Shown here in pieces: positions 37,022 through 62,826 of a stretch of DNA of 64,000 nucleotides (position 1 is its first letter; the number at the start of each line of letters is the position of its first letter). Source of the DNA: an uncultured Acidimicrobiia bacterium. Lineage in GTDB: Bacteria > Acidobacteriota > Terriglobia > Versatilivoradales > Versatilivoraceae. A program made the translations under genes and the position numbers. Location: contig CAWBAT010000005.1 in assembly GCA_963786955.1 (NCBI GenBank), positions 1,164,127 to 1,228,126 on the forward strand, in the 5' to 3' direction. The notes beneath the pieces were generated by a model. That model saw nothing but the letters and a program-made list of their open reading frames with translations. It searched no databases and was not told the DNA's origin.

Positions 37022-40000
37022 ATGAGCGAAGGACTCCTCTCTTGGGATAGTTGTTCCTCAGTTTTTGTGCGCGATATGGTATTTTATGATCGCATCGAAG
37101 AAAGGATACACATCAATCCCGTGGGTGAACGCAGAATGAAACCAGAGGATCTGCTTTTAGCGGCCGAACTGGATTCCGCAAAAGCTTCCCAGATTCTAAA
37201 GAAATACGGATTTAAAGATCCGGAATGGGGCAGACCGTAATCTGCAGTTGATGGCTGAGGACCTCTCAACCCGTCTCATTCTGGCCCGAATCATCGGAAT
37301 TTATTGGAAGCTGCCAAGAAATGTCCCGACCCTGACTCTGCCATCAATTACTTTGAAAGACTTTTGGCCAATGTAGCGCATTCGAGCAATTTCTTGGGAT
37401 TTCTGGGAGATACTCCTGAAGCGCTCGAGGCCCTGATCCTTCTGCTTGGAACCTCCCCGTTCAGCGCCGAGATTCTGATCCGAAACCCCGAATACTTCTA
37501 CTGGATCCTGGATGAGTTGGGGACTCCGTGGATCAAGCCGTCATCGGCTTATCTTCAAGAAGCGCTGCAGGCGAAGGAGCCCTTTGAAGATGGAGAGCAG
37601 CAGTTGCGGGCACTCGGCCGATCTCAAACGGCGGGAAATCCTACGAATCGGCGCCAGAGACATTTTGAGAGCTGCAAACGTACTGGGGACAATTACCGAG
37701 CTTTCAAATTTAGCCGATGCTGTTTTGCAATCTATTTACTCCATATGCTTTCAGAACCTGGCTGGGAAACATGGCATCCCTTGCTTTCTGGATGCGTCAG
37801 GTAAATTGAGAAGGGCCCGGTTTACAATTCTAGCAATGGGAAAACTAGGCGGGTGCGAACTCAACTACAGTTCAGACATTGATCTGATTTTTATCTACGA
37901 TGGGGAAAACGGGAATACGACATCCGCTGAAAGCCTGCTGGAATCCAATCAACCGGGAGATCCAGAACGGACGCCCGCTATTTCTACAATCCCCCGGCCT
38001 CCAATTCTGGAAGATCTAAAATCCATTTCAAACACCGAATTCTTTACCAAGCTTGCCCAAACCATTACGCACGAACTCTCGAGTATGACTGAGGAGGGAT
38101 ATTTCTACCGAGTGGATCTCCGACTCCGCCCCGAGGGGAGTGCCGGTCCGGTGGCGAGTTCATTCACGGCCTGCAAAAACTATTACTCCAGCTGGGGGGA
38201 AACTTTTGAGCGAATGGCGCTGATCAAAGCCCGACCGGCAGCAGGTTCCACGGAGCTTGGAGACGAGTTCTGCAAAGCCTTCAACTCTTTCGTTTACCGG
38301 AAGTTCTTGGATTTTGCCGCTTTAGAAGAGATCCAGGAGATTAAGACTCGGATTGAATCAAAACTGACTGCCAGGAAAAAAAATGTCCGGCACGTTAAAC
38401 TCGGAGCGGGCGGGATCCGTGAAATTGAATTCTTCGTCCAGGCGCTCCAGTTAATCTATGGAGGTCGAAATCCGCAAATACAGGACCGCAGCACGGTCAA
38501 GACGCTCAGCCTTCTGCAGGGGAACCAATTTATTTCTACCGACGAGAGTGCAGGACTGCTGGATGCCTACTGTTTCCTGCGCGACTTGGAGCACAAGCTA
38601 CAGATGGTTAATGAGCTCCAGGCCCATGAACTTCCCGAAGACGAGGAGGAACTCTACAAATGTGCCCGGCGAATGGGCTTTCTGGAAAAGTCTCGTGCCG
38701 AGACGATCAAAACATTTTCTGAAAAAATATGAATCACACACAACCTATGTTCGGGATCGCTTTCAAAAGCTTATTTCTCTGAAGAGAGACGAGTGGTCCG
38801 GCGGCCAGATGCGAGAGGCCTCTCTGATTCTCAGCAAGAACCTCTCAAAACAGGAAGCCTTGGAAATCCTTGACAGACCGGGGTTCGAAGACCTCCAGAC
38901 AGCTTATAATCAAATCTGCTTGCTCCGCGATGCTCCTTCGTTTGCCCACTCGCCCTCAAAGATGCGCAATTTGCTGGCGAACCTCATGCCATCCCTTCTT
39001 GAGACCCTCAGGGTTAGTCCTGATCCGGATACAGGCTTGAACTTCTTCGAGCAGTTTGCCAGTGCATTAGGAGCCCGCGATTCTCTATACACTCTCCTGA
39101 ACGAATCCCCCAATGCTCTTCACAGTCTCATTCGAGTTCTCTCCAGCAGCCAGTTTCTCGCGGATTTTCTTTGCCGAAACCCCGAATTCCTGGATGCCAT
39201 TATCAAACTAGAATATTTAGAAGAGGCAAAACAACTTGAAGAATACAAATGGCAGATCAGAGAGATCCTTTCGGAGGAAAACAGCTTTGAGAATCGTGTT
39301 CAGGCCCTCAGAAAGCTTACACGAGGAAGAACTATTCCGCATTCAGGTAAGGGATGTCTTGGATCAATGTGATCGTCCATTGGTCGGTAAACAATTGGCT
39401 GCCTTGGCGGAAGCATGTTTAGAAGGGGCATTTTTGCTTGCCTGCCAAAGACTGGAAGAGCATGAAATGAGTTCCTTTCAGTCATGGGCGCAAGATCACT
39501 TTGTCATCCTTGCCCTTGGAAAATTGGGGGGAAATGATCTGAGCTACCAATCGGATTTGGATCTTGTCTATTTCTATTCGGTTGATTCAGAGACGAATTC
39601 GATCGGACGCAACGCCGCCTCACTCGTTTGGTAGAACAAATCGACCAGATACTAAGCGTCTCGACAGGAAAGGGCGCGATCTACAAGATCGACACCCGCC
39701 TCCGTCCTGAAGGAAAGAAAGGTGGATTAGTCACCCCTTACTGAAATACCAGCAATATCTCGAACATCGAGCCCAGCCTTGGGAACGGTTGGCGATGGTT
39801 CGCCACCGCTTATGATGGGGAGCTCAAGAAATCGTGCCATGCATTCTGAAATGGTGAGGGGCTTTGTCTTTCAGTCGGAATTTCCGTCCATCCGTGGTCA
39901 AGGAGATTGCCCATATCCGTCACCGAATGGAAATAGAATTGGCGAAAGAGGCTGAAGAAAATAGTTTTCATATCAAGGCAGGGGCTGGCGGGTTAGTGGA

Positions 40001-40275
40001 TATTGAGTTTGCCGTACAAATGATGCAGTTGAAACATGGGTGCCGGCATCCTGCTTTACAGATTTCCAATACTCTTCATCGCCCTGACGGAAATCAGAGA
40101 ATTGGGGCTTATTTCGCTTTCTGATTTCCAGGTTCTCTATCTCGGGTACGAGTTCCTCCGTTTCCTGGAAAATCGATTGAGGATTGCCTCTCCTTTTGGC
40201 TCAGGAACCTTTCATCGTCAATTACAAAGTCTAGGGAAAACGTCACGCCTACTTGGGATATTCAAGCACGAATGA
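37022..40275 (+). pseudogene. glnE: Glutamine synthetase adenylyltransferase GlnE, fragmented across at least six reading frames
   Basis: Successive overlapping open frames carry both GlnE nucleotidyltransferase cores (GKLGGCELNYSSDIDLIFIY and GKLGGNDLSYQSDLDLVYFY) plus the conserved inter-domain helices. Each frame ends where the next begins. Confidence 0.8.
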
Positions 40276-41050
40276 TCCTAGGGCCGCCAAGGATTTCGAA
40301 GGTGCGTACCTCGACATCACGAGTTCCGTAAGAAATGTGTACCAGAGAATCATGAATCAGTTGGCCTTATCATGAGCTTTCTTCGATCCCGATAACACTC
40401 ATCATTCTCCCAGTTTTTCCTTTTTCTGCACGGTGGGAAAAAAAGAGTTCGGTCCGGCAAGCTCGTACAAGCCTCACTACTGAAAATATTGTGTGGCAGG
40501 ATCCCAGATTCGAGTAATTGGTGTTTGCCAGGCAGCTACAAATCGAGGGACATCGTTGTCGGCGCAGTCAAGTCTTTATGGTTGAAGCTGCGGAAAAAAG
40601 AATCCCTCCAGCGAATTCTTTCGCGAATGCCTGGACCATTTCCTCTCCGACTTCGTAGCAGCAGGGGCCAATTCCAGGTCCGATTACCGCCAGGCAATCG
40701 GCAGGGACAGTCCAGAAATTCTTTTGCATCTGTTCAGTCGGCTTTCATGGTGATTCTTTTGAGAAGGCCTCGCCAGCCAGCATGAATGGCAGCAATCGAC
40801 TTTTCGACGAGGATCGACCGCTAAGACGGGCAGGCAGTCGGCGGTTTGGATGGCCAGCAGAATTCCAGTCTGGGCGGTAATCATGGCGTCTGCTTCTGGA
40901 GCCGTTGCCAAATGGTTTCTTGTTCCTAATCGCAAAGATTCTGTCGGAGTGAGTTTGGCGCAAGGTGACCAGAGGGATTTCCCTGCCGGAGACTGCACCG
41001 GGCCAATCTCTTTCGATTTTCCAGCACGATTTCTGCCGGTTGATAATCAT
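40270..41050 (-). pseudogene. pgeF: YfiH/PgeF (DUF152) purine-nucleoside-phosphorylase/laccase-domain protein, frameshifted
   Basis: Fragments in two minus-strand frames carry TLRQTHSDRI and ILLAIQTADCLPVL motifs. The downstream conserved His/Trp block is out of frame. Confidence 0.55.
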
Positions 41051-41207
41051 TCAATCCAAGGTTAAGGTCTCTTTTGGGTTCAGGGTCAAAACGCAAGCTA
41101 AAACCGTGCAGCATCCACTTGAAGGAAGCTAGCGGTTGGTGATATAAGAAATTTCGCGACCGTTGAGATTAGAAACTGGTTATCCGTCATAAAGAGAGAG
41201 AATTGAA

Positions 41208-41585
41208 ATGATTGTGGGCATGGGAGTCGATATTGTCGAAATTGAAAAACTCAGACTCGCCATGATGAGACGAGGTGAGCGACTGCGCAATCGGGCGTTT
41301 ACTCCGGGCGAGATTCAATATTGTGAACAACGCGCTCACCAGTATCAGCATTATGCCGCCCGATTTGCAGCTAAGGAAGCTGTATTCAAGGCGATCGGCT
41401 CGGGATGGAGAAATGGAGTGACCTGGCTCGACGTGGAGGTTTTCAACGAGCTCAGCGGGAAGCCCATACTCCGACTAAATGGAAAAACCCTTGAATTTGC
41501 GAACGCATTAGGGGCCCGGAATTATTGGTTAAGTTTGACTCATACCGACCACTATGCGGTAGCCCAGGTGGTACTCGAATCTTAA
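41208..41585 (+). CDS. acpS: Holo-[acyl-carrier-protein] synthase
   Basis: MIVGMGVDIVEIEK...FAAKEAVFKA matches AcpS. 125 aa. Confidence 0.9.
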   Translation: MIVGMGVDIVEIEKLRLAMMRRGERLRNRAFTPGEIQYCEQRAHQYQHYAARFAAKEAVFKAIGSGWRNGVTWLDVEVFNELSGKPILRLNGKTLEFANALGARNYWLSLTHTDHYAVAQVVLES

Positions 41586-43009
41586 GGGGCGACGATTCCA
41601 CTCGCCCTCTCCATGCAAATTTTTCAGAATGTCGACGTTTCGAAGACTAAGAAACGACCCGTGCCAGATAGCCCTTCCGAGGTGATTCCAGTCACAATGA
41701 CTTCCCGCAATTGATTCGATTGAATACTCGGGGGCATCGATCGAAATTTTCAAGTAGTTGCTACTCAGTGCGTCCGCGGATCTCTCCGGCTCATGCCAAC
41801 GCAAGGTCATGACTCCGATTCTCTTGCCGATGAACTTTTCCCTAAATTCCCGATTCTTACGGGCAGCCAATCTCCCTCAATTCATTACCTTGCGCTGACC
41901 GGTGACTTCACTTCGGCCCAGTCGGTCGCATCAAGGCGGCTGCTGTGCCGGGTCGTTGGGAATAGGGGAATACATGGAGATAAGTCATCGGCGCCAGGCT
42001 CAAGAGCGATTTTTGTTTCGATGAAGTCTTCTTCCGTCTCGGTAGGGAAACCCACCATGACATCGGCGCCGATGGCCGCATCTGGAACACGTTGTCGCAT
42101 TTTCTCGACTAGTCGGCGATAGAACTCCGCGGTATAGGGTCGACGCATGAGGCGCAGTATCCGGTCGGATCCGCTTTGTAATGGAACATGAAAATGCTTC
42201 GCCATCTTGGGCGACTGTGCGATAAGGTCAATGAGATCATCGGTATATTCCAAAGGTTCAATGGAACTTAGCCTGAGACGTCTCAATCGATCTTCTCGAA
42301 GAAGCCTTTAACCAACAGAGCAAGGTTTTCCTTTTCCCCAAGGTCTCTTCCGAATCCGCCCAGGTGGATTCCTGTTAAGGTGATTTCCTTATACCCCTGG
42401 TTTAAAAGTTTCCTGGTTTGGCGAAGGACTTCATCGATGGACAAGCTGCGGGAATTTCCTCGAACTGAAGGAATCACGCAAAAAGAACAACGATAACTGC
42501 ACCCATCCTGAACCTTCAAAACGGGGCGCGTTCTGTCTGCCCCTCCTGGATCTCCGATCGTCCGAAGCTCGCGGGACTCGAAGATGCTGCTGCAATAGAC
42601 TGTCGCCCCTGAAGCTCGAAAATGGTTTATTGTCTGGGGATCCCGCAGCATCGCTTAGTTGCCTCTCCCTTTGCGTCACAATCGAGACCAACTGATCTTT
42701 GTGCGAGTTCCCGACTACGCAAGACACCCCACTGATGGCAGCCACCTCGCCCGGCACACGCTGCGCATAACAGCCTGTGACAACCACACGGGCAGTAGGA
42801 TTTTCTCGATGAACTCGGCGAATCATGGTGCGGGCTTCAGCGTCAGCGGCGTGGGTTACCGTGCAGGTATTGATGACAACAATATCAGAGCGGTTCCACT
42901 CCTCGGATTTCTGAAAGCGATTATTCAAGAAAGCCTGTTCCAAAGCGGCGCCATCGGCTTGAGTCGCTCGGCACCCGAAATTAATAATTTTGAAAGTCTT
43001 TGACTGCAT
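41530..43009 (-). pseudogene. mtaB: Radical-SAM methylthiotransferase (MtaB/MiaB family) split into at least four frames
   Basis: N-terminal MTTase domain (INFGCRATQADGA...INTCTVT). Radical SAM core (CSYRCSFC). Central HFHVPLQSGSDRIL and LTYLHVFPYSQRPGT. TRAM-like C-terminus. All lie in different frames. Confidence 0.7.
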
Positions 43010-43013
43010 GGCC

Positions 43014-44040
43014 CTATTTTGTCCCTGGTCTGCTGAGAACCCCTACATCGGACAAGACCTTCTGAGCCATGAGATTTTTAATGGGGGTCTCGTTTCTAAC
43101 AACGTCAAGATAGGCATTTTTCAAGAGCGATTCTTTGCGATTGAAAATAATCTGACGAATGTCTGCCTGAACCTTGGGGTCGCTGAGTTCGCGTTGCCCT
43201 CCGGCTTCTTTTTCGATGAGTTTGACAAGATGGTATCCATATTTCGTCATTACGGGATCCGGAACGTTTCCCCTACTTTCAGGCTTTGGACCGCTTGACG
43301 AAATCTGGGATCGATGGTTTCCAACTGCTGAGCGCTCAAGAGCCGGAGGTCTCCTCCGGACTGGGCTGACGTGCTGTCTTCCGAATAGTCTCTAGCCAAG
43401 ATGGCGAAATCCATGCCGCTCTGGAGCTGTTTCAAGAGAGAGATCACTTTCTGCCGGGCGGCCTCGTCCGTCTTCGCGTCGTCGCCCTTACCGTTACTGA
43501 TTTGAGGTTCGGCGAAGGGAGTCACTAGGATATGTTGAACATGCCAGCTCTCTGGCAAGTTGTAGTTGCCTTTATTTCGAACAAAGTACTCATTAATTTC
43601 CGCTTCCGTGACCGAAATCTTCGAGGTGATTTCTTTGTTATAGAGCTTCTCAATCGTTGCACTCTTTCCTAATTTCTTTCTTGATGCTCGTCAACCGTAA
43701 CGCCCTGGTCTTTGAGAAATTGTTGAAACTTTTCTTCCGTAAAATCTTTCTTGAAATCATTGAAGCGGACATTAACCTCCTCATCACTGGCAGTAAGTTT
43801 GTCAATCGCAGCCCGTTGCATCAGCATTTCATCACTGATCAGTTGCGACAAGATGGTCAAACGTAGGGTCAAGATTTCCTCTGGTGAGAGGGGCTGAGCT
43901 AGACTGTTTGAGCCGATTTTGATAAATCTTTTCAACGTCGTTATCTTTGATCGTTGTCTGATTCACAACGGCGACGGTATCGGGTGAAATCTTGGGGCCC
44001 GACTGGCAGCCCATACAGATTACGCAAAGCCACCCAAACC
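43014..44040 (-). pseudogene. Parvulin-type peptidyl-prolyl isomerase (SurA/PrsA-like) split into at least four frames
   Basis: Parvulin core (QHILV...GGDL...) and a GYHLVKLIEK C-terminal fragment, plus SurA-N-like chaperone segments, each in a different frame. Confidence 0.65.
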
Positions 44041-44310
44041 ATACCGAAAATCCATTGAAGTCTAATGTTCACGCCTGCCTCCTGTGCCTTTATGATGGCC
44101 ACTTATACTACCACCGCCCCATGTAGGGTACAACAGATTGAATGGGATGGAGTTCCCCAGCGTGGGATCATAAAAGGATCTTGAAACGGATCTCTTTTTG
44201 ACTTCTTAAAGCCCTAATTAGTGAAACCGAGAACTAAGTACTGCTCTTCATAAAGACGGTGACGGTAACGCCGGGGCGGTGACCGGGCCTACAACTTTGT
44301 AGGTCGCGTG

Positions 44311-44320
44311 CCCCCCCCCC
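44311..44320. repeat. C10 homopolymer tract in the intergenic region
   Basis: Ten consecutive C's seen directly, between the frameshifted PPIase and ubiE genes. Confidence 0.9.
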
Positions 44321-44350
44321 GACACAGCGCCTATCCTGAGATACGTCACC

Positions 44351-45098
44351 CTAATTACAAATAGCAATACTAAGGGGCAGATGGCTTCCGACCATAGTTG
44401 ATCGCGATGATTCCTCCTCCAAAAACAGATAGCCCGTATCCTCAAATCCGGCTTTGTCCATGAGTATTTGGACGCCGTGCTGCGCAGGATAAAGCTTCAG
44501 CGATTCCGAGATATAGCGGTAGACGTCAGGATCCCCGTGCATGACCCAACCCAATAGGGAGCCCATAACCGTAAGATAACCTAAATACGCACGGCAGTAA
44601 AAAGGATTGACAGGTTTCGCAAAATCCAAGGAGAGAAATCTTCCGCCCGGTTTGAGCATTCTGAAGACTTCTGACAACAAACAAGCGATATCGGGAACAT
44701 TGCGAACACCATAGCCAACGGTAATCCGGTCAAAGGTGTTGGCGTGAAACTCAAGCCGGGTGATATCACCGACTTCAAATTCAATGCCATTGATTCCCAA
44801 TTGTTGTTTTTTTCGGCTAGCAATCTCAATCATACCGGGAGTGATGTCTACACCCAGGACCCGTCCTGTTGAGACCATTTTCGCCAGCATGAAAGTGATA
44901 TCGCCCGTCCCGCAGGCCAAGTCCAGAATAAGTGATGCGGTTGAACATCAGTCCATCGAACCAGCTTCTTTTTTCCAACGTCGGTCTTGCCCATAGGAAA
45001 GCAGAGCGGTCACAAGGTCGTAGCGGGGGGCGATCTTGGAAAACATCTGGTTGACATACAGCTGTTTTTTTTCCTTTCGAGTTGATGAATTCCTTCAT
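44351..45098 (-). pseudogene. ubiE: Demethylmenaquinone/ubiquinone methyltransferase UbiE/MenG with at least three frameshifts in the 5' third
   Basis: N-terminus [11 protein letters not shown], then [29 protein letters not shown], then [10 protein letters not shown], then LILDLACGTGDITF... in successive frames. The first shift is at a T8/A8 run (45065-45072). The C-terminal 189 aa is an intact Class I SAM-MTase. Confidence 0.8.
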
Positions 45099-45303
45099 AT
45101 TCAGTCGGCTTGGATTAGCCATTGAGTCACATCTTTCTCGATCGGGTAATGATCGAATTGTGCCTGCACGGCGTGGTAGTATTGGTGAAACTCCCGAGGG
45201 CAGCCGTTTGGTCAGATACCCTGACCTCATTTTTTCTCAGCTTTTTCACGGATCCTGTTTCACTTTACTACGCCATTCTTTCAAACGCTCGCTCACCGTT
45301 GCT

Positions 45304-46602
45304 TCATAACCCTCTCCAGACGGTGTGAAGTAAGTTCTCCCGGCAAGAGAAGGTGGAAGACAATTCATATCCGTTACGCGTTCTGCAAAAGTGATGGGCG
45401 TATTTGTACCCCTTCCCATAACCCAGATCCTTCATGAGGCTGGTTGGCGCATTTCTTAAATGTAAGGGGACCGGATCCGCGAGAGTCATTTTGATGTCCT
45501 GGAGGGCAGAGTCATAGGCCTTATATATAGCGTTCGACTTTGGGGCAGTTGCCATATAGACTGCTGCTTCCGCGAGGGCAAAGTGCCTTCCGGAAGTCCA
45601 ATGAAATGGAACGCCTGCATGGCACTGACCGCCATGAGACAAAGCTGCAGGATCAGCCAATCCCACATCTTCGGACGCAAAGCGGACAATCCGCCGGGCA
45701 ATGTAAAGCGGATCCTCTCCGGACTCAAGCATCCGACCGAGCCAATATAAGGTAGCGTCAGGGTCGCTATTCCGCATGGACTTATGGAGAGCAGAAATCA
45801 GGTTGAAATGTTCCTCGCCGGACTTGTCGTAAAGCAGCATTTTCCGCTGGAAAGTATCTGCTAATAGTTGCGGGGTAATGATCTTCTTATTTGTTGTCTG
45901 ACAAAGGAGTTAGCTGAAATGCCAGCTCTAGCGTGTTATAGGCAGTTCGGGCGTCTCCGTTGGCAAAAACCGCGATTTGAGCCAATAAGTCATCCGTGAT
46001 TTCAATGGGTTCGGCACCGAGGCCTTTCTCTTGTTCAGATAAGGCTTTTTCAGAAGGAATAGGATGTCTTCAACCGTCAATGGCTCAAGTACGTATACTT
46101 TGGAGCGCGACAACAATGCCGCATTGATTTCAAACGAAGGGTTTTCAGTGGTGGCACCGATCAAGATAATATTTCCTGTCTCGACATGCGGGAGGAATGC
46201 GTCCTGTTGGGATTTGTTGAACCGGTGGATTTCATCAATAAACAGAATTGTTTTCCGGCCGTAAGCACGAACTCTCTCGGCCTCCGACATCACGGCTTTG
46301 ATTTCCTTTATTCCTGCAAGAACCGCACTGAAAGGAATGAAATCAGAGTGTGTCAAATTGGCAATAACGTGGGCAAGGGAAGTTTTCCCGGTGCCCGGTG
46401 GGCCCCAAAGGATGATGGATCGAAGCTCATCTCTCTCAATACCGACTCTTAGGGGTTTCCCAGGCGCCAGCAAATGCCTTTGCCCGACAAGCTCCTCCAA
46501 CTTTTGGGGGCGCATTCGATCGGCAAGAGGCGTACTTCGATCAGTCGCCTTCTTTAATCCATTCTGGAGATTGGAAAACAAATCCATATTCATTCTGGCC
46601 AC
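45304..46602 (-). pseudogene. rarA: Replication-associated recombination protein A (RarA/MgsA AAA+ ATPase) with multiple frameshifts
   Basis: Intact N-terminal AAA+ core ([21 protein letters not shown]). C-terminal half conserved but split ([13 protein letters not shown] in one frame, [18 protein letters not shown] in another). Confidence 0.8.
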
Positions 46603-46636
46603 ACCCTCAAAAGGAAAGACCCCGACATCCGGAAAA

Positions 46637-47443
46637 TCATTGTCTTTGGCGTGTTTTTCGTTGCTCAGCGGCTTGACAAAGTATGATGGAAGAAGCGACC
46701 GCTACATTAAGCGACTCTACTGAAGAGGAAATCGGGATGGTTATCTGGCGCTCGACTTGATCGAGAATATTACTGTCCAGCCCCCTTGCTTCATTCCCTA
46801 AAATTAAGACGACCCGCCCGCGATAATCAATGTCACGAAAGCCATCCCTTTGCCTGGGCCAGTGGCGTATACTCGGTAGTTGTTTTCGCCAAACAGTGCC
46901 AAAGTCGCTTGAATGTCCCAACCAGGAAAACAGGGAACCCGGAACACCGAGCCCGCAGACGCCCGAATAGCCTTTGAATTATAAGGGTTGACAGAATTCT
47001 TGCTCAGAATAATGGCGTCTGCCCCAAAAGCTTCCGCGGAACGCAAAAGAGTTCCCAGGTTTCCAGGATCTTGAATGCAATGCGTCAAAGACAATGAGAG
47101 AATCTTTGGTAAGAATTCTTTTGAAGCTCCATTTTGGGAGGAATACCAAAGCGGATACGCCCTGAGGCGTTTCCGTACTGGAAATTTCACTGAAAACCTT
47201 TTCGGACAATTGGATGACCGTGGCTTGGTAGGTCTTAGAGCTTTTTAGCAGGTCCTCCAAGAGTTTCATTTTCCGAGTCTGTTCGCTCACATAAAAGGAG
47301 TCCACATCCAAGCGGCTTTTAAGCGCTTCCTCAATGAGCGTAATCCCTTCGACAAGAACACGACCCCGTGAATCCGGCCAACCTTCTCGAATCTGATCCC
47401 TGATTTTTTTGACTTGATTGTTGGCTGTTGAGCGGATGATCAA
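46637..47443 (-). pseudogene. TrmH/SpoU-family RNA 2'-O-methyltransferase split into three frames
   Basis: SpoU motifs ([27 protein letters not shown]) and an N-terminal substrate-binding region occur in three separate overlapping frames. Confidence 0.7.
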
Positions 47444-47510
47444 GTATTCACTCCCTGGCTATATCCATTCATTGACCGTACCCGAAAATTTATGTTAATT
47501 TGCTAACCGA

Positions 47511-48140
47511 ATGATTACACAACGAATTAGGATACAAGATAGCACGATTGATGATTCTGTTCTGCAGGTTGCTCTGGCATCGATTGAGAACGGGAACATC
47601 ATTTCTGTCCCCACTGAAACATTCTACGTCTTGTGCGCGGACCCGTTCAACCTAAGGGTTATTGAAGAGATCTTCCTCATTACTAAACGGAAGGAGTGGA
47701 AGCCTCTTCTCCTACTTGCAGACTCGATAGACCAGGTTGAAGTCATGACGTCAGGTCTGCAAAGAGCCTTTTTATGAAATCGCAGAAAATTTCTGGCCTG
47801 GGCCACTGACCCTTATTCTCCCGGCAGCAAATCACGTCCCATTGAAGATTACTGGAGGAACGGGTACCGTAGGAGTCCGGATTCCTGATTCAAAGGTACT
47901 CGAACGTTAATTCGGTCATTTGATAGCCCTGTTACTGGGACGAGTGCCAATCTTTCGACTCACCCGGTATGCTCGACCGCAGATGATGTCTTGATCCAGT
48001 TAGGGGGAAAAATTGACCTGATTCTTGACCAGGGGGATACCCGAGGGAGAGCACCGTCTACAATCCTAGATCTTACTCGAGACCCCATTCGCGTCGTACG
48101 CGAAGGCGCTATTCCCCTTGAGAGGTTTTCTTCTTACTTG
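47511..48140 (+). pseudogene. tsaC: L-threonylcarbamoyladenylate synthase (TsaC/YrdC/Sua5 family) with frameshifts
   Basis: YrdC motif GNIISVPTETFYVLCADPFN in frame 1. Continuation WPGPLTLILPAANHVPLKITGGTGTVGVRIPD and further C-terminal residues are in other frames. Confidence 0.65.
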
Positions 48141-48145
48141 TCTCC

Positions 48146-48784
48146 ATGAAAGAGCGTGGAAAGAGAGTCCTTTTCCAGATATTATTCGCCTATCTTCCAT
48201 CTTTACTCCTGGCCTACATTCTTGTTCTCTATGTCCTGATTCGACGTAGTGCGGCGCTTGATGAATCTCAGCCAGCCGACATCATTTTCGTCTTAGGGGC
48301 TGCCCAATATAACGGGAGGCCTTCCCCGGTATTTAAGTCCCGATTAGATCATGCAGCAGCTCTCTTTAAAGAGAAATTTGCCGGTAAGATCATGACTACG
48401 GGAGGATATGGTTTTGACCCGAGGTACTCTGAGGCGGGGGTGGGCAAGCTGTATCTGATGAAGCAGAGCATCCCGGAGGATTGCATCTACACTGAGCCCA
48501 GCGGTCTGACAACCGGTGAGAGTATTGAAAGGGCCATCGAATTTCTCAAACAGCATAATTTTACCCGGGTTATTGCTGTCAGTGATGGCTTTCATCTGTT
48601 CCGGATTAGAAGAATCTTTCGAGATCATGAAATCACGACCTTTGGTTCGCCGGCTCAACATAGTGTCATTGAATCCAATTTTCGCTCCCGCACGCTGGCT
48701 TCTTTACGTGAGGTATTCATCTTCACAGCCTACATGGCGCGACACCATCTCCATATATCTTTTCCATTCTCCGAGATGTCCTGA
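48146..48784 (+). CDS. DUF218/YdcF-like (ElyC/SanA family) membrane-anchored protein
   Basis: N-terminal transmembrane helix followed by a DUF218-like domain (DIIFVLGAAQYNGRPSPVFKSRLDHAA...GGYG). Confidence 0.7.
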   Translation: MKERGKRVLFQILFAYLPSLLLAYILVLYVLIRRSAALDESQPADIIFVLGAAQYNGRPSPVFKSRLDHAAALFKEKFAGKIMTTGGYGFDPRYSEAGVGKLYLMKQSIPEDCIYTEPSGLTTGESIERAIEFLKQHNFTRVIAVSDGFHLFRIRRIFRDHEITTFGSPAQHSVIESNFRSRTLASLREVFIFTAYMARHHLHISFPFSEMS

Positions 48785-48785
48785 G

Positions 48786-50360
48786 TCACTGATTCCTCTT
48801 AATTTTCAAGGTCTGGACAAAGTCAAAATTTCCAGCCGGAGACAACTCGATTTCCGAAAGGCGACGGTTGTACACGCAAACGGTGTCCATATACCAGAGG
48901 CTGATGTAGGGCAGATCATCAGCAAGAATCTTTTGAATTCTGGAATAAGCCGTACGTCTTTTCTCCAGGTTGGACTCTTGGCGGGCCTCATCAATCAGCA
49001 GGTCCACTTCAGGATTCTCGTATCGACCACGATTATACCCTTTAGGGGGAACTTCGCGGGAATGGAACGCTCTTTCAAAGAGGTCGGGGTCATTATTTCC
49101 TCCAATCCATCGCAGTGAGTAAATTTGAAAATTGCCTCTCACAATGTCTGCATAAAAAGTGCCGAATTCGTAGGAACGAAGGTCCACCGCAATGCCAACC
49201 TCCTTCAAGGCTTGTTGAATAATTGCAGCCACCTGTCGGGAAGACTCCTCTGTAGAGGTCCTGAACGTCAATCTAAAACGTGGCAGAGGCCCCTTGCCAT
49301 CGGGATCTTTCCAGCCAGCCATGTCGAGCAGATTACGGGCCTTTTCCGGATCATAGGAATAGCGCTCCAACTCGGGCTCATAAGCCCAGTGATTCGGAGG
49401 AAGCAAACTCGAGGCTGGGATAACCAGACCGCGCCAATAGTAGCGGATAATGTCCTCCCGTGGAATTGCATAGGCAATTGCTTTTCGTACTTTCTTATCC
49501 CGAAGAACGAGATCTTTGAGATTTAATCCGATGTACTGGTAATTGGTTCCTGGAACAGCTCGCCACTCGAAGATGGGGTTCGCGCTAAGAGCCATCACGA
49601 AATCAGGGGTCAACACGTTTTGAGCAATATCAATGGATCCCTTTCGTAATTCCAAAGCCCGGGTTGTGGAGTCCGGAATGACCATAAACCGGATGCGGCC
49701 TGCGGCGGGGGAGTCCTCCGAAATAGTCGAGATTTGCTTCGAGAAGAAGTTCTTCTTCGTGCGAGTAAGAGACAAAACGATAGGGGCCCGAGCCTACCGG
49801 GTTGCGTTGAAAGTCTTTGCCCGACCCATAGGGTACGATCCCAATCCCTCCGTTTGTCAAGTTCCAGAGAAATCCGGCAAAAGGTTCCTTCAACCGGAAA
49901 ACAATGGTGTGCTCATCCGGTGTTTCTATCGACTGGATAAGCTGGAAGGTGGAAGATTTCGGGGAAACGAGCGAGCCATTCAGGAGAGATTCAAAGGTAT
50001 ATTTCACATCCCTCGCCGTCAGTGGACCTTCCGTCATGAAACTTCACTCCAGACCGGAGGTAAAAGCAGTAGGTCAGTGGATCGAGGGATTCCCAGCGGG
50101 TCGCAAGGTCTGGTAGGATTTCAAATCTTCTTCCCCTACGGACCAGAGAACTAAAAATCAGTTGTTGAATTCGTTCCGATTCCGCACTTAATCCAATGCG
50201 AGGATCCAGACTGGTAGGTCCGGCTTCCAGCGCGATCGTAATGGCTGGGTCCATGGTGCGGGGATGACCCGCAGCCCTGATGAACACCAGCGAGTATCAA
50301 ACCTAATACGAGCCACATAGTTTTCCGGGAGCAAAAAATTTTGACTTGTAAGGATTTGAG
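48786..50360 (-). pseudogene. ABC transporter substrate-binding protein, family 5 (Opp/Dpp/Nik-like), split into four frames
   Basis: Signal peptide/lipobox fragment, then DPAITIALEAGPTSLDPRIG, GSGPYRFVSY and a long C-terminal fragment, in different frames. Confidence 0.75.
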
Positions 50361-50503: not shown

Positions 50504-51702
50504 CTACGAGGCCGGATACGTTTGAAATTCTTTCCGATAAATGATCTTCCCCAAGACCGTCATATGGCGTGCGCCCGTGGCTGATGGTACATTCCCGGGA
50601 TGAAAATGCAGCGTCTCATTAGCGAGGATGGCAAAACCAATAGCCTCTTTAGCTATAGACGGGATTCCCAATTCATCCGATGCCAAAACATCCAGCTGGG
50701 ATAAGACTTTCTTGATCCTCTGCATCAGGTAGGAATTTCTGGAACCTCCGCCCGATACAATCAGCTGGCGAATTGAGGGTTTTCCGAGCGATAAAAGGAT
50801 CGATGGCCTTCGCAATAGTCTGTACGGTGAGCTCCGTTGCCGTGCATATCAAGTCCTCTAAACAGAAAGAATTTCCTAATCGAAGCAGTTCTTCGAGGAA
50901 AGCCATTCCAAATTGCTCTCGACCTGCCGTCTTCGGAGGGGGAAGAGAGAAGTAAGGTTGCCGAACTAGTTTCTTGAGAAGCGCCGGGATGATTTTTCCA
51001 CTTCGGGCGATTTCTCCGTCTCGATCGAATCCCATTTCATTGTGGGTCATCCGTCGGACCAACCCATCAATCACCATGTTACCGGGCCCAGTATCAAAAG
51101 CCACGATTTCTGCCAGCGTGAGTGGCTGCTGGAAGAACTGTCACATTGGCGATACCCCCAATATTTAAGAGGATACGACCGTGCCGTGGATGTCGAAAAA
51201 GCAAATAGTCCACATAGGGGTATGAGGGGAGCACCTTTGCCACCCGCGGCCATATCCCGCGGTCTAAAATCACAGATCGTCGTTATCCCGGTTTGTTCCG
51301 CGATGATTGAAGCTTCCCCAATCTGTAGAGTCGATGCCAAAGTCCGACCGCAAAAGGCATCCGGCTCCGATTGATGGAAGATCGTTTGCCCATGGGAACC
51401 GACCAGGTCAATCTGGTTGATCTTAACGCGGGCCTCCTCACATAACTTAAGAATCGCCTCTGCATAGAGTGTTCCGATCAAAAAGTTCATCTGGCTGATC
51501 ACCTTGGGACGGAACAGGCGATCCTGAAGCGATCTGGAGAAGTTCTCGGTGGACCTCGAGAATCAAAGGGGATGGAGATAAAATGCCGCAACACAATTCG
51601 CGTCTGCCGACCTGCCCCAAAAATCTCCACCAGAGCAGCATCGACACCGTCTAGAGAGGTTCCCGACATTAATCCGATAACAAGTTTGGAGTTCTTGGGC
51701 AA
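50504..51702 (-). pseudogene. anmK: Anhydro-N-acetylmuramic acid kinase, frameshifted into at least four fragments
   Basis: AnmK N-terminus GLMSGTSLDGVDAALVEI plus middle and C-terminal conserved blocks (VGSHGQTIFH, AAGGKGAPL) in separate frames. Confidence 0.8.
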
Positions 51703-54327
51703 TTATTCTTCTACTTTCGATTTAAATTCATTCAATTTTTGCAAAGCCTGTAGAGGAGTAAGCTCGTCAGGATTTATTTGGCGGAGTTCTTCAAGCACTT
51801 CATGATCACTCAGGACAAACAAATTCAGTTGATTCTCCAAGGAGGTTTGCTTTCGTTTGAAACTTCGCGTCAGTTGATCGCTGATTTCGTGTTCCCCCTC
51901 TTCATGCTTTTTCAGAATGTCGCGAGCTCTTTCCAAGACGCTGGAGGGGAGGCCAGCAAGCCTGGCGACTTCAATCCCGTAACTCTTATCTGCTGCTCCC
52001 GGCTCCACCTTTCGAAGAAAAATAATTTCTTGACCCACTTCCTTGACGGAGACATGGTAGTTCTTCACTCCAGGCAAAAGATCTGCCAGCTCGGTCAGTT
52101 CATGGTAATGAGTCGCGAACAAGACTTTGGAACGCAAGTGACAATGGAGGAATTCGATGACTGCCCAGGCTATCGCCAATCCATCAAATGTGGCTGTTCC
52201 GCGTCCAATTTCATCCAAAATGACAAGGCTTCGGGAAGAAGCGGCATTGAGAATCACTGCCGTTTCGGTCATCTCAACCATAAAGGTGGAGCGGCCGCGT
52301 GCGAGATTATCGGTTGCGCCGATTCGAGTGAAAATACGATCAATCAGCGGCAATCGCGCATAGTCTGCCGGGACAAAAGAACCCATTTGCGCCATGATGG
52401 AAAAAAGAGCCGTCTGCCGGAGGTACGTCGATTTTCCTCCCATGTTTGGTCCGGTAATGATGAGGATTTGATCGGTGGAATCATTTAGATAGAGATCATT
52501 GGGAATGAACTTTCCAAGCGAAAGTTGATCGGTGAGCTGTTCGATGACCGGGTGGCGACCTCCTTTCACGATAAACTCGCCATCGGGTGCAATTTCTGGT
52601 CTGACATAAGAATGGGAATGCGCCACTTCAGTGAGAGAAATCAAGCAGTCTAATTGTGCCAGGGCCGATGCGCATCGCCTGATCCGTCACTGCTTCCAGC
52701 GCAACTTTGGAACGAAGTTCTGTAAAGAGCTCATATTCAATTTCTACCATCCGGTCTTCTGCCCCAAGAACTTTACGTTCATATTCCTTTAGTTCAGAAG
52801 TTGTAAACCGCTCAGCGCCGACCAGGGTTTGTTTCCTTTCGTAATGTGAAGGAACCAGGCCCAGATGGGACCTGGACACCTCGAGGTAATATCCAAAAAT
52901 GTTATTAAACCTTACCTTTAGATTACTAATCCCGGAAAGAGAACGTTCACGGGACTCCAATTCTGCGATAAATTGCTTCCCTGAGGTACTGATCTGACGA
53001 AGCTCATCGAGCTCACTATGGTAGCCCTCTCGAATCAATCCGCCCTCAGTGAGCAGGATAGGAGGGTTATCTTTTAGAGCTTTTCCGATGAGTTCGGCAA
53101 CGTCCTCCAATGGATCTGCCAAGTGGTTCAGTTCTTGGAGGCGCCGCGTGGCGAATGATCCCAAGCGGGTTTTGAGGAAAGGGATTTGTTCCAGGGATTG
53201 TCGGAGAGCGACAAGGTCCCGCCCGTTGGCTGTAGACAGCGTTACCTTGGAAAGCAATCGCTCGACATCGTAGACCTTCTGAAGAAGTTTCTTAATTTCT
53301 TCGCGCTCGATCAATTTCCCTTTTAGTTCAGTAATGACATCTAGCCGCAATTGGATCTCGTTCAAATCAATTTCAGGGCGCAGCAACCAGCTTCTGAGCA
53401 ATCGTGCGCCCATGCCCGTCGAAGTTCGATCCAGACAAGAAATCAAAGTCGCATGTCTGGTACCGTCGAAGAGAGATTCCACTAACTCAAGGTTACGGAC
53501 CGTCGAGGAATCCAGTACCAGTGCTCCGCTCAGATCGTAGTATTTCAAATGGTCGATATGGCTTAGCCGGGCTTTCTGGGTGTCCTTCACATAATGTAAA
53601 ACTGCTCCAGCCGCGGCCACAGCGAGCTTACGATCCTGGCAACCGAATCCTTCAAGGCTCATCACTCCAAAATGCTCGGTCAGCGTGCGTTCGGCGTAGT
53701 CTGTCGAAAAGATCCAATCTTCAATGATTGTTTGTGACGGGATAAACTGGACAATTTGGTGAAGCCTTTCGTGCGGCGGGAGAGAGGCATGAATCAGTTC
53801 TTTTGGTCTAAGGCGTTCTAGCTCGGTCTGAAACTGTTCAAAGCGTTTTCTCCCTTGAACTCCGTGGTCTGAAAGTCTCCCGTCGAAATATCGAGGGAAG
53901 CCAGGCCCACGCCGCTCCGATCTACCCACAGGGCACTCAAGAAATTGTTCTCCTGTGGTTCCAACAGGTTTCCGTCGGCAACCGTACCCGGAGTCAATAC
54001 TCGGCTGACTTCCCGTCGAACCAGTTTTTGTGAAGGTTTGGGTCGTTCAACTTGGTCGCAGACGGCAATTTTGTATCCTTTCCTGACGAGTTTTGCCATA
54101 TAACTGTCTGCGGCGTGATACGGGACTCCACACATGGGTACGGACAGCCCTTTTTCCTTGTTTCGGGAAGTGAGGGTGATCTCCAGTTCACGGGAGGCGA
54201 CTACAGCGTCCTCAAAGAAGAGTTCATAGAAATCCCCCAGACGAAAGAAGACGAGCGCATGCGGATATTCTTTCTTCACCCGATGGTACTGCGTCATCAT
54301 AGGGGTTGAGGGTTCCATGGAATCCAT
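51703..54327 (-). pseudogene. mutS: DNA mismatch repair protein MutS interrupted by at least two frameshifts (three fragments)
   Basis: N-terminal mismatch-binding fragment ([34 protein letters not shown]). Middle connector/clamp fragment. C-terminal ABC ATPase fragment (GPNMGGKSTYLRQ, DEIGRGT). All are consecutive but in different frames. Confidence 0.9.
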
Positions 54328-54529
54328 TCTCCCTTGGCAGGAGGGGTCATGCGGAGAAACGGTTGGTGCCAAAAATCCTGGAAGTATATAATTCCGGTGT
54401 TTACGAGTGTCAACGCGACCCGTTCCCGGTTGGCGGGCCTCGTGTACACAATACATTTAAACTCCGCATAGGGAGAAAAGAAAAAAGATCTTCTCGTGTT
54501 TTCGAATTCTCTGATGTGACCTCGGTCAA

Positions 54530-55726: not shown

Positions 55727-55920
55727 ACGAACGAGGAACCCACACAGCAGGGTGGTGGGCCTCATCCAGAAGAACGGGCTTTCTTTCTTTGTCCAAGCTC
55801 TACCTCGGTAGGAGAAGAGTAGGAGGTGTGGAAGACTGCGGGCTCCGCCATGGATTCCCCCGTTGATAGAAAGTGTGCATTATGACTTGTTTTTGCAATC
55901 GAGCTGAGGAGGAAGCTACC

Positions 55921-56121
55921 ATGAGCGGGAAGCAGAAGCCATTGTCGATGATGCGGAGAAGAGGTAATGGGCTTCGGGGAGTGCCTTCTCACTGTCCTGA
56001 ATGGCGGGAACGCAGTCTCGAATCTCTTGCACCCATGAGCTCGCGCCCGATTCTCAAATTTTCCAAGGGTCGGGCACAGATCTTGGCGGTATCGGCACGA
56101 CAGTCGAGCCGTTCTTTGTGA
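55921..56121 (+). CDS. Candidate small basic ORF (66 aa) with strong Shine-Dalgarno; no recognisable family
   Basis: GAGGAGG 8 nt upstream of ATG in an otherwise unassigned ~400 bp gap. No homology recognised, and the region is frameshift-prone. Confidence 0.3.
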   Translation: MSGKQKPLSMMRRRGNGLRGVPSHCPEWRERSLESLAPMSSRPILKFSKGRAQILAVSARQSSRSL

Positions 56122-56125
56122 AATG

Positions 56126-58967: not shown

Positions 58968-60692
58968 TCAAGTCGCTTTCAGCGCGACAATCGTTTGATC
59001 ATCATATTTCCTGTTATCCAGCGAAAACTGCTCAATCTCCGAGAGGATTTTATCTACTAATCTCTTCACTGGAAGGGACGAGTAGCGCGCCACGGCTTCT
59101 TTTAGGCGATCCACTCCGAATTCCTCTGCCCGCAGATCCCTGGCTTCGAGCAAGCCATCAGTATAGAAAATCACACAATCGCCTGGATTTAGCGCGACCT
59201 TAATTTCTCGGTATTCCGCTTCATCGAAAAGACCCAAGGGAAACCCTTGAACGGAGAGAACCTCGGCCTTTCCTCCCCGGCATACAATGAGCGGAGGGGA
59301 TCCGGCGTTGGAGTACTTGAGGATCCGGGTATTCCCATTATAGATTGCATAAGAGAGGCTCATAAAGCGCCCCTCGATGGCGCGCTGTCGTAACGAGATG
59401 TTCATGAGCCGCAACATTTCTGCTGGCGAATACTTTCGCCCAGCTCGGGTTCGCAAAATGCCGCTGGCAACAGCACCATAGAGGGCTGCAGGTGCTCCCT
59501 TGCCGGATACGTCGCCAATGGCAATAGCGACTGTATCGTCGTCATAAGAGAAAAAGTCGTAAAGATCCCCCCCTAGAATCCGGGCAGGGCGGAATTCTGC
59601 AAAAAAGGTTGTATTAGGGATTTCGGGATACTTGTCGGGAATGAGGGAATATTGAATTTCGCGGGCAAATTTCAGCTCACGATCCAGCAAGGCTTCGGCT
59701 GCGACCACTCTCTCATATAGTCTGGCGTTTTCAATTGCGACCGCCACATGGCTTGCCAATGCCATGAGGGTCTCCTCATGAAAGGGTGTGAAGTAGTTCA
59801 GGAATGGACTTTGGAGATCGAAAACACCGATGGCTTTGTCTTTGTAGATCAGCGGGATGACAAGCTCTGAACGTGTTTCTGGAGTAACGCTGATATAGCG
59901 AGGATCTTTGGTCACGTCATTGATGAGAAGAGGACGCTTTTTCGTGACCGCGGTCCCGACGAGCCCTTTTCCCAATGGGATTCTCGATTTCTCCTTGGCA
60001 TCACGATTGTACTTCACGGAAAGCCAGGATCGAAGCACCTGCTCTTCTTCGTCCACGAGCAGGATAGAAAAGATGTGGTAGTGAAAGACCCGGCGGAGCT
60101 GCTCCGCGACTTTCTTCAGAAGTTGTTCGAGATCAAGAATCGAGGAGAGTTCTTTCCCGATCTCGTTGAGAGTTTCAAGCATCTCACTCTTTGATACAAG
60201 ACTCTCATAGAGGAGCGCATTGTCAATAGCGACAGCCAGTTGGGATGCTAACAGGGTTAAGACTCTCTGGTGATAGGGTTGGAAATAATTGGGCTGGGGA
60301 CTTTCGATGTCCAGAACTCCGACCAGGCGATTCCTCGAGAGCAAAGGAATCGCGAGCTCAGAGCGGACGCCTTCAATCAGATCAATGTAACGAGAATCTC
60401 GGGTTACGTCAGGGACCAAAATCGGTTCACGGCGTAACGCAGCGGTGCCTACCAAACCTTCTCCAATTTTGATGTGCGTCCCTTTAACATTGTCAGGGTA
60501 TCCCAAAGTAAATCGCCAATAGAGGTCCTTCCGGATTTCGTCGACCAGTAGAATAGCGAAAATCTGGTAGTCGATGAACCGGCGGGTAGTTTCGGCGATC
60601 TTCTCCATAAGTTCGTCGAGGGAAAGAATTGAATTGATTTCTCGACCCACTTCGAAAATCAGCTCAAACAGGTTCTCTTGGTTCGTGGTCAA
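58968..60692 (-). CDS. GAF-GAF-PP2C (SpoIIE/RsbU-like) serine phosphatase
   Basis: Two GAF domains (GEGLVGTAALRREP and GKGLVGTAVTKKRP) followed by a PP2C/SpoIIE domain (GGDLYDF...IGDVSGKG...FYTDGLLEA). Confidence 0.85.
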   Translation of the reverse strand: MTTNQENLFELIFEVGREINSILSLDELMEKIAETTRRFIDYQIFAILLVDEIRKDLYWRFTLGYPDNVKGTHIKIGEGLVGTAALRREPILVPDVTRDSRYIDLIEGVRSELAIPLLSRNRLVGVLDIESPQPNYFQPYHQRVLTLLASQLAVAIDNALLYESLVSKSEMLETLNEIGKELSSILDLEQLLKKVAEQLRRVFHYHIFSILLVDEEEQVLRSWLSVKYNRDAKEKSRIPLGKGLVGTAVTKKRPLLINDVTKDPRYISVTPETRSELVIPLIYKDKAIGVFDLQSPFLNYFTPFHEETLMALASHVAVAIENARLYERVVAAEALLDRELKFAREIQYSLIPDKYPEIPNTTFFAEFRPARILGGDLYDFFSYDDDTVAIAIGDVSGKGAPAALYGAVASGILRTRAGRKYSPAEMLRLMNISLRQRAIEGRFMSLSYAIYNGNTRILKYSNAGSPPLIVCRGGKAEVLSVQGFPLGLFDEAEYREIKVALNPGDCVIFYTDGLLEARDLRAEEFGVDRLKEAVARYSSLPVKRLVDKILSEIEQFSLDNRKYDDQTIVALKAT

Positions 60693-61742: not shown

Positions 61743-62287
61743 TCTTCCTCAAAATGGAAATGGTCGTCAAATTTCGGAACTTCTGGGCATAATCCAGTCC
61801 ATACCCAACGACAAACTCATCAGGAATCTCAAAGCCCACATAGGTGGCTGCTACATCTTTGGTTCTTCGGGACCGCTTACTTAAAAGAGTGCAGATGTTC
61901 AGGGAATTCGGACCGCGTGTCCAGAGATAACGAGACAAATAAATCAAGTGTCAGGCCGGTGTCCAGAATGTCCTCCACGATCAAGACTTCTCTCCCTTGA
62001 ATCGTAGAATCCAGATCTTTGACGATTCTGACCTCGCCGGAGGAGCGCTGACTTTCCTTATAACTAGAAACCGCCATGAAATCCAAAGTAGTGTTTTTGG
62101 GCAAATATCGGATCAAGTCCGCCAGAAAAATACAAGCACCTTTAAGGATGCAGATCAGATGCAGCTGCTTCCCCGTATAGTCGTCCGTTATCCGGATTCC
62201 TAATTCTTTGACTTTGGCCTGGATTTGTTGCGCGTCGATTAGAACATCTAGTTGAGTTGACACCTCAAGGGTATCAGGCGTCATCAT
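61714..62287 (-). pseudogene. hpt: Hypoxanthine phosphoribosyltransferase split into two frames
   Basis: The N-terminal 136 aa includes PRTase motif [14 protein letters not shown]. The conserved C-terminus (ICTLLSK..RR...[18 protein letters not shown]) is in another frame. Confidence 0.8.
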
Positions 62288-62455
62288 TAAACCCCAGATA
62301 TATTTGATGCCCGAATTATTCTACTGTATCCTATCCGTAATCGTGGTGCAAGCCGGACGCGCAGGAAGGCAGCTTGACAATGATCAGGCGCTCTTCTTAT
62401 CATGCCATGGCGATTGAGTATTAAGAATAATTCCGCAGCGAAGGAGCAATCGGTA

Positions 62456-62826
62456 ATGATCAAGAAAGTGAGCTTAATAATCGGTTGTCTGTTCGTGGCG
62501 GTTTCCATGGCCGGAACATTGCCCAAGGGAAGAAAGTGACTTTTGCCGGTTACCTGCTGGATCAAATGTGTGGTGCAGAGGTGAAGGACACGGCCAAGGC
62601 TGCAGAACACTCAAAGGAATGCGCCCTCATGGATCACTGCGTTGCAGCGGGCTATGGGATCTTCGCCGAAGGGAAGTTTATCAAGTTCGATGCCCAGGGT
62701 AACAAGAAAGCCAAGGCATTCCTTGAGAGTAGTAAAAAGGAAAAAGGCATTCTGGTTATCTTGGAAGGAAATCTTAATGGTGACGTCTTGACGGTCTCGG
62801 CGATAAAGGAAAGGGGTGTTAAGTAG
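62456..62826 (+). CDS. Small secreted hypothetical protein; signal peptide and mature part are in different frames
   Basis: AAGGAG Shine-Dalgarno then ATG gives MIKKVSLIIGCLFVAVSMAG... which hits a stop after 27 codons. The mature region GKKVTFAGYLLDQMCGAEV...ILVILEGNLNGDVLTV continues in the +2 frame. Confidence 0.45.

Follow-up and report, generated by a model that had tools for sequence, protein, structure and literature searches.

Does this 64,000-nucleotide stretch of contig CAWBAT010000005.1 (the window, meaning all of the DNA analysed here) hold a block of housekeeping genes in decay, or a block of intact genes whose sequence was badly assembled? The source contig measures 1.76 Mb and comes from an uncultured Acidobacteriota of soil or sediment; the window itself has 50% GC, no N's and Acidobacteriota-like gene content. 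An earlier reading of the sequence alone (the sequence-only reading) had noticed an abrupt switch near 37 kb from clean genes to frameshifted ones, and had offered both explanations. We conclude that the tract beyond this point is very probably an assembly or consensus artefact, with the organism's genes intact and without gene decay: the lesion spectrum and the intact state of the same genes in relatives speak for artefact, and the absence of relaxed selection and of nonsense substitutions speaks against decay. The finding is a data-quality warning and no biological feature.

Small insertions and deletions (indels) were polarised by multi-way alignment with the intact relatives L167, L168, L169, L171, L004 and L002/L003, and gene identities are based on Pfam hits. 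The contigs compared with the window were as follows.

L001/L172: ENA accession ERZ25039488 contig_73790, 87 kb, 92% nucleotide identity, spanning window 31.2-51.7 kb
L004/L085/L167: ERZ25039487 contig_53265 = CAWEPG010000016.1, MFD02159.bin.1.95, 89-90% identity, spanning 9.7-62.9 kb
L168: ERZ25039490 contig_50778, ~88-89% identity, crossing the 37-kb boundary
L169: GCA_024642845.1, ~88-89% identity, crossing the 37-kb boundary
L171: Logan SRR21359329, ~88-89% identity, crossing the 37-kb boundary
L002/L003: JGI contigs, 83% identity, spanning 39.2-48 kb
L084: Logan ERR10755939, identical to window 17,509-24,421 (cox operon)
L086: MEGAHIT contig of ERZ27248036, matching window 27,027-35,090

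Same-strain comparison with an independent assembly was made for the clean left side, with L084 and L086. Judging from the sequence match, run ERR10755939 probably contains the window's own strain, and it may be where the source data came from.

Extent of the fragmented tract

In 2-kb bins, the longest stop-free stretch averaged ~1000-1400 nt for most of the first 36 kb and 340-800 nt in 40-52 kb, and in the open reading frame (ORF) map long ORFs occupied 1-37 kb and short overlapping ORFs the region beyond. Between 25.2 and 36.9 kb the alignments contained nine small indels, eight intergenic and one at the 3' end of gdhA; the gene singled out earlier as the sole frameshift left of the boundary thus carries the only coding indel of this interval. 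From 36.9 to 52.0 kb there were 73 small indels (4.8/kb), 62 of them in coding sequence (CDS), and from 52.0 to 62.9 kb there were 24 (2.2/kb), with ~9 in CDS. The abrupt onset of fragmentation near 37 kb is borne out by these densities. The earlier minimum of 35 indels was exceeded about twofold, with ~72 frame-breaking indels in CDS from ~36,970 onward, and all 15 conserved genes listed as broken carry indels, as does one further gene of ~100 amino acids (aa). On the left side, genes in 9.7-37 kb have lengths equal to those of their orthologues in L085, L167 and L171. This side is independently clean, with 100.000% identity to L084 over 6,913 bp and 97.6% identity to L086 over 8 kb, in which the gdhA end was the sole coding indel.

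The features concerned are listed below; per-gene counts are events within gene coordinates, some of them common to L001 or located at gene ends.

33,700-33,720, plus strand: gdhA 3' end, 1 bp too short at the purine tract CAGAAAAGAAGAAGG, with the conserved C-terminal 29 aa replaced
36,000-37,030, unstranded: boundary zone, with the first extra base at 36,973 and the first glnE frameshift at 37,133
36,973-52,000, unstranded: dense tract of presumed errors, with glnE, pgeF, mtaB, a SurA-like peptidyl-prolyl isomerase (PPIase), ubiE, rarA, trmH-like, tsaC, an SBP_bac_5 family gene (SBP) and anmK, assessed by multi-way alignments and the frame-corrected ratio of non-synonymous to synonymous rates (dN/dS)
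37,130-40,375, plus strand: glnE, 12 one-base indels; 1078 aa in relatives
40,357-41,185, minus strand: pgeF (Cu-oxidase_4 family), 8 one-base indels, 3 of them co-located with L001; the densest gene, at 9.7/kb
41,208-41,585, plus strand: acpS, clean within the dense tract; protein identical in L001, L002 and L003
41,630-47,446, minus strand: mtaB, PPIase, ubiE, rarA and trmH-like, with 8, 5, 5, 7 and 2 indels, respectively; single ORFs in relatives
47,511-48,149, plus strand: tsaC, +1 at 47,759 (identical G insertion in L001) and -1 at 47,898 (window only)
48,786-54,400, minus strand: SBP, anmK and mutS, with 6, 7 and 3 indels; single ORFs of 544, 400 and 897 aa in L004
52,000-62,900, unstranded: sparser tract of presumed errors, aligned pairwise to L004, in which the orthologues are single ORFs apart from a split PP2C gene
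52,686, 53,839 and 54,392: mutS indels
55,128: tsaB, 1 indel
58,458: bacilliredoxin gene, 1 indel
58,621 and 58,682: small gene of ~100 aa, 2 indels
58,968-60,692, minus strand: GAF-GAF-PP2C (SpoIIE) phosphatase gene, clean in the window; split by a 1-bp indel in L004
61,940: hpt, 1 indel
62,518: secreted protein gene, 1 indel

The same genes are whole elsewhere. GlnE (1078 aa), PgeF (~275 aa), MtaB (451-456 aa), the PPIase (341-369 aa), UbiE (250 aa) and RarA (454-457 aa) are full-length in L167, L168, L169, L171, L002 and L003, with PgeF intact at 274-275 aa in L002, L003, L168 and L171, and the TrmH-like protein, TsaC, the SBP, AnmK, MutS, TsaB, bacilliredoxin and Hpt are each encoded by a single ORF in L004. 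The affected genes are intact in relatives from five other assemblies, in which there were essentially no private coding indels. The orthologous pseudogenes that the sequence-only reading had named as a sign of real decay did not appear, the genes being intact in L002, L003, L004/L167, L168, L169 and L171.

L004 has 1-bp errors of its own, at window-equivalent positions: besides the split PP2C gene (59,574), the N-terminus of rarA is shifted (46,411), and a DegT gene and an epimerase gene are each divided into two calls (~25-27 kb). The split PP2C gene shows that the relatives' assemblies contain scattered errors too; the background error rate of these metagenome-assembled genomes (MAGs) is low but above zero.

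Within the tract, acpS, DUF218, GNAT/rimI-like, clpS, Gfo/Idh, GAF-PP2C, RpiB-like and accD are free of indels, and alignment upheld the earlier description of the PP2C, Gfo/Idh, accD and acpS genes as clean. The gene-selective pattern that had been read into this was not upheld: what the alignments gave was a regional rate change with modest patchiness at the kb scale (variance/mean 1.3-1.5), and no dependence on gene function. Indel density per gene did not track local divergence at synonymous sites (dS); the PP2C gene has high dS and no indels, and anmK has lower dS and seven. Because the kb-scale patchiness and the density step account for the clean genes, no selection needs to be invoked for them, and they fit local variation in indel density. 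The patchiness, together with the step from 4.8 to 2.2 indels/kb, fits a changing read depth.

Lesion spectrum and selection on the broken genes

The 72 CDS events consisted of 53 +1, 18 -1 and one +2 event, none larger, with insertions outnumbering deletions ~3:1. We found no internal stop codons, and no nonsense substitutions, in the frame-corrected window genes compared with L004. Three 'stops' were flagged, all in the first 14 codons of stop-to-stop reference ORFs, and these probably lie upstream of the true start codons.

Spontaneous biological frameshifts cluster in runs and short repeats. Among the private 1-bp insertions of the window, 36/57 (~63%) differed from both neighbouring bases and only 2/57 fell in runs of at least 4. 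The insertion context was that of random placement (50% of background positions lie in runs of length 1), and homopolymer content was equal in both halves of the window. Insertions unlike both of their neighbours are not the product of homopolymer slippage. The earlier assignment of many indels to homopolymers held for gdhA, whose event does lie in its purine tract, but failed for the T8 at 45,065, the C7 at 58,464 and the A4 at 55,133; these runs match those of the relatives, and the nearby indels are a few bases off, with unrelated inserted bases. Around the 80+ indel sites we found no common sequence and no slippery or methylation-like motif. The identity of the inserted bases differed along the tract, with A+C 13 vs G+T 3 in 36.9-42 kb and A+C 4 vs G+T 12 in 52-63 kb (Fisher p=0.004; the strand test was picked post hoc on small numbers and is supportive only). 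This flip in bias suggests blocks covered by very few reads of one orientation.

Purifying selection on the window branch is undiminished, with no relaxation. Compared with L004, the frame-corrected genes have protein identities of 87-98% and dN/dS of 0.05-0.22, and the un-hit genes of the tract fall in the same range. TsaC is 94% identical to its L004 counterpart with dN/dS 0.07, and MutS is 93% identical to the intact 897-aa L004 orthologue with dN/dS 0.095. Window-private substitutions, isolated with the use of L001 and L004, were distributed over codon positions as 72/53/272 (69% third), with 267 synonymous and 129 non-synonymous changes. The resulting non-synonymous to synonymous ratio (N/S) of 0.48 is the same as that of the intact L004 lineage, in which the codon positions received 82/46/249 substitutions and the synonymous and non-synonymous changes numbered 253 and 121. 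In glnE, with outgroups from the L167 clade, private synonymous/non-synonymous counts were 137/78 for the window and 28/11 for L001. Neutral decay would be expected to yield ~3 non-synonymous changes per synonymous one and ~20 nonsense changes among 480 substitutions, neither of which was seen. The transition/transversion ratio (ts/tv) was 2.23 in the window, 2.23 in L001 and 2.08 in L004; this equality across lineages indicates that there is no signature of mismatch-repair deficiency.

The boundary, the second noisy contig and rival explanations

We propose that the consensus from ~36.97 kb to at least 62.5 kb may rest on very few reads, because of which single-read insertion and deletion errors would have survived polishing, at ~5/kb up to 52 kb and ~2/kb thereafter. 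Each such error would make a gene that is whole and under selection appear as several overlapping ORFs. In the organism itself, the glnE, pgeF, mtaB, PPIase, ubiE, rarA, trmH-like, tsaC, SBP, anmK, mutS, tsaB, bacilliredoxin and hpt genes are almost certainly intact. Most bacteria cannot, or can hardly, do without tsaB and tsaC, which act in t6A synthesis, and to our knowledge decay that removed ~15 housekeeping genes at once from a single tract, with the rest of the genome intact, would not be viable.

The ENA analysis accessions of L001, L004 and L168 are adjacent, their contigs are named in the style of Flye, and L004 is labelled as a Microflora Danica MAG. The best genome-collection match of the window's mutS is a Microflora Danica long-read MAG contig (89% aa identity), followed by 'Acidobacteria gp11' MAGs. 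L001 appears to belong to the same Nanopore-only project. The Microflora Danica catalogue was assembled from Nanopore data only, using Flye --meta --nano-hq and one Medaka round, and its authors describe reduced coding density in lower-coverage MAGs, which they attribute to Nanopore errors (PMC12313526).

L001 is itself noisy. In the 11 kb left of pyrR it is clean, with carB (at least 1071 aa), the aminotransferase gene, pyrB, pyrC and gdhA intact. Over 39.2-51.7 kb it has 29 private small indels (27 insertions, 2 deletions), compared with 52 (37 and 15) in the window and 8 in L004. Most of these lie elsewhere than the window's: pyrR is broken in L001 and intact in the window, and trmH-like and SBP are intact in L001 and broken in the window. 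Some ~13 events are co-located in the two contigs. Those at 44,088, 44,377, 45,250 and 46,411 are real gene-end or spacer differences, or are private to the L004 clade, and that at 45,638 is visibly two distinct insertions. Eight are frame-breaking and derived: +1 at 38,714, -1 at 39,591, -1 at 39,808 and +1 at 40,079 in glnE; 40,384, 40,743 and 40,908 in pgeF or the glnE end; and the tsaC +1 at 47,759. By our estimate, ~1-3 co-locations would be expected by chance within alignment resolution.

If these indels were ancestral, the intervening segments would have been out of frame throughout 8% divergence, and the third-position bias contradicts this. Between glnE 38,714 and 39,591, private substitutions fall on original-frame codon positions as 9/8/31 in the window and 1/1/10 in L001, and TsaC downstream of 47,759 is 90-98% identical between the two. 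Because the original frames remain the translated ones, the co-located sites are recurrent errors. Recurrence of error sites is seen directly in gdhA, where the purine tract CAGAAAAGAAGAAGG is 1 bp short in the window and 1 bp long in L001; this tract is an error hot-spot. The conserved GdhA C-terminus KKKKDMRVAAYVLAVGRVADATNARGLFP can still be read in window frame 2 and is encoded in L086, L167 and L171. The sequence-only reading had also asked whether the same indels occur in sister strains or MAGs; in the relatives compared they do not occur as inherited lesions, since most are private and the ~8 common to L001 are not ancestral. At 300-bp resolution, L001 does not alternate between window-like and L004-like sequence as a mosaic would. 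Its pattern points to context-specific recurrent errors or to a population-level cause.

Several points weigh against an origin in plain low-depth error. The spectrum, with insertions ~2-3x as frequent as deletions and outside homopolymers, differs from the homopolymer deletions that are classic for polished Nanopore consensus. The rough doubling of window-private substitutions from 36.0 kb is not accounted for by plain indel error. L001 turns noisy at pyrR, within ~0.5 kb of the window boundary, and has ~8 coding indels co-located with those of the window. For two independent assemblies this is an unexplained coincidence, and it may hint at a cause specific to the sequence or the population (mixed strains, for example, or basecalling errors tied to context) over random depth loss. 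Finally, low read support is an inferred cause, and only its closest relatives and the contig size suggest a Nanopore origin for the source.

Some of these points would be met if the artefact arose by a particular route, in which the assembly path or the polishing reads switch at ~36 kb to a rarer, more divergent strain, so that error rate and divergence jump together there. We regard this sub-mechanism as possible but, on balance, doubtful. The step at 36,000-37,000 may be the site of a recombination breakpoint or of an assembly switch between strains: the roughly doubled window-private substitutions are genuine and mostly synonymous, they begin at ~36.0 kb, 1 kb ahead of the first indel, and they rise from ~13 per 400 bp on the left to ~29 over 36-40.8 kb. 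In pyrR (36,268-36,813) there are 42 private substitutions in 546 bp (25 synonymous, 17 non-synonymous) vs 1 in L001; for comparison, pyrB has 22 in 987 bp. The clean pair L167-L171 has no rise in divergence across the boundary. A switch would also fit the identities, since the left side was matched at 100% and 97.6% and the right side, among the matches listed, at 92% at most, and a population-level breakpoint would fit the L001 boundary at the same locus. However, substitutions on the deeper shared branch also accumulate ~1.6-fold faster right of the boundary, which means that lower constraint on glnE and pgeF accounts for some of the increase, and the excess is small beyond 41 kb.

The right-side searches for the same strain were, moreover, limited in reach. 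Exact-protein look-ups with the right-hand accD, DUF218, RpiB-like, clpS and pyrR products found no same-strain short-read contigs on record. Among the matches listed by a protein search with a 433-aa MutS fragment, all were distant, with at most 73% identity, and even the 89% orthologue of L004 was missed. In a scan of metagenome contigs with a rarA fragment, generic AAA+ motifs dominated and none of the matches listed exceeded 71%.

Going left, synteny between the window and both L168 and L172 stops near 30.7 kb, beyond which these contigs carry different genes (an aminotransferase gene and carB). Transposase genes lie at this break, Transposase_mut/MULE in L168 and HTH_Tnp_1 in L172. The break, ~6 kb away from the error boundary, resembles a hot-spot of rearrangement.

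Genuine recent pseudogenisation, a reductive decay of the 27-kb housekeeping block, is very unlikely. It would account for many conserved genes being interrupted in a cluster, for the interruption of the same genes in L001 (a few of the interruptions at the same positions), and for a real-looking 361-bp deletion of a RidA-family gene nearby, between short direct repeats. It is contradicted by the N/S of the window branch, which equals that of an intact relative, and by the finding of neither a nonsense substitution nor an indel >2 bp among the 72 CDS lesions, most of which are insertions of random bases that do not stem from slippage. Downstream of the lesions 'shared' with L001, selection still acts on the original frame, and the frame-periodicity test shows that these lesions are not inherited; most lesions are private, and five related assemblies are intact. 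Decay would also have struck the near-essential tsaB and tsaC while leaving the adjoining 37 kb pristine.

It is likewise highly improbable that a subset of the lesions is real, namely the indels that recur in the two 92%-identical contigs (glnE 38,714, 39,591, 39,808 and 40,079; pgeF 40,743 and 40,908; tsaC 47,759). If they were, they would represent a population-level phenomenon, for example a hyper-diverse, strain-mixed segment, or frameshifts that are tolerated or recoded in this Acidobacteriota clade.

We give almost no credence to a mutator in which a broken mutS released a burst of frameshifts. Loss of mismatch repair produces indels in homopolymer runs throughout the genome and a strong excess of transitions; the window's mutS is indeed split into three ORFs, but the indels avoid runs and are confined to one tract, and ts/tv matches that of the relatives. 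The broken mutS that had been taken as a sign of biology contains two or three 1-bp indels of the usual kind in a gene with low dN/dS. Programmed recoding, in which real frameshifts are read through by ribosomal frameshifting or transcriptional slippage, would fit the purifying selection on downstream frames and the identical tsaC insertion in two assemblies, but scarcely merits consideration given +1 and -1 events at up to 10/kb with no common motif, at sites absent from collinear orthologues of 83-92% identity; we know of no bacterial precedent for frameshifts at a density of this order.

Other features of the window and comparison with known systems

Relative to L004, 361 bp are missing from the window at 55,918-55,940 (junction 55,928). 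Their absence removes almost all of a RidA/YjgF-family gene (Pfam Ribonuc_L-PSP), of which only ~5 codons at the start and ~14 at the end are left, and short direct repeats (GAAGCGGGAA / GAAGCAGAAG) flank the junction. No other lesion of the tract looks like a genuine deletion, although a read-level dropout could also account for this one. A 136-bp segment at 44,233-44,368, in the spacer between the PPIase gene and ubiE, is absent from L001, L002, L004/L167, L168 and L171; it has ACTAAG direct repeats on its flanks, a C10 run inside and no Rfam hit, and could represent either a small insertion or one introduced by the assembly. Upstream of accD, a 76-bp segment at 62,873-62,948 is present in the window only, relative to L004. 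Neither an Rfam nor a tRNA scan of the window gave a hit. At ~9.5-22.3 kb lies a large respiratory cluster, intact in the window and in relatives, which encodes, according to Pfam hits of the orthologous L085 genes, a multihaem cytochrome c, a 1019-aa Fe-S protein, NrfD-like and ActD proteins (alternative complex III-like), then SCO1 and coxBACD.

Taken at face value, the sequence would make any annotation of this MAG miscall ~16 housekeeping genes, mutS, tsaB, tsaC and glnE among them, which would appear as pseudogenes or fragments, and this could invite mistaken conclusions on mutator status or genome reduction. An error tract and decay can be told apart without reads, by the size spectrum of the lesions, their slippage context, the N/S and codon phase of private substitutions, and regional strand bias of the inserted bases. 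Error tracts can be sharply local in a megabase contig with perfect neighbouring sequence, and some of their sites can recur between assemblies.

In the number of frameshifted housekeeping genes, the window resembles reductive decay as in Mycobacterium leprae or recent endosymbionts such as Sodalis, but it lacks the relaxed selection, nonsense mutations, deletions of varied size, insertion sequence activity and genome-wide spread of such genomes. It resembles strain-switching or chimeric metagenome contigs in that divergence and consensus quality change abruptly at ~36 kb, but the divergence step is modest, and no same-strain reference for the right side turned up. The remaining comparison is with the false pseudogenes of low-depth, Nanopore-only assemblies. 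The window differs from textbook Nanopore errors in having mostly non-homopolymer insertions in place of homopolymer deletions, and from the usual case in that the errors are restricted to a single tract of at least 26 kb, with sharp limits, in a contig of 1.76 Mb, and in that a second contig is noisy from the same locus. As in such false pseudogenes, single-base indels split conserved genes regardless of coding status or gene importance, some sites recur between assemblies (the gdhA purine tract and tsaC 47,759), and assemblies from short reads or with better coverage have these genes whole.

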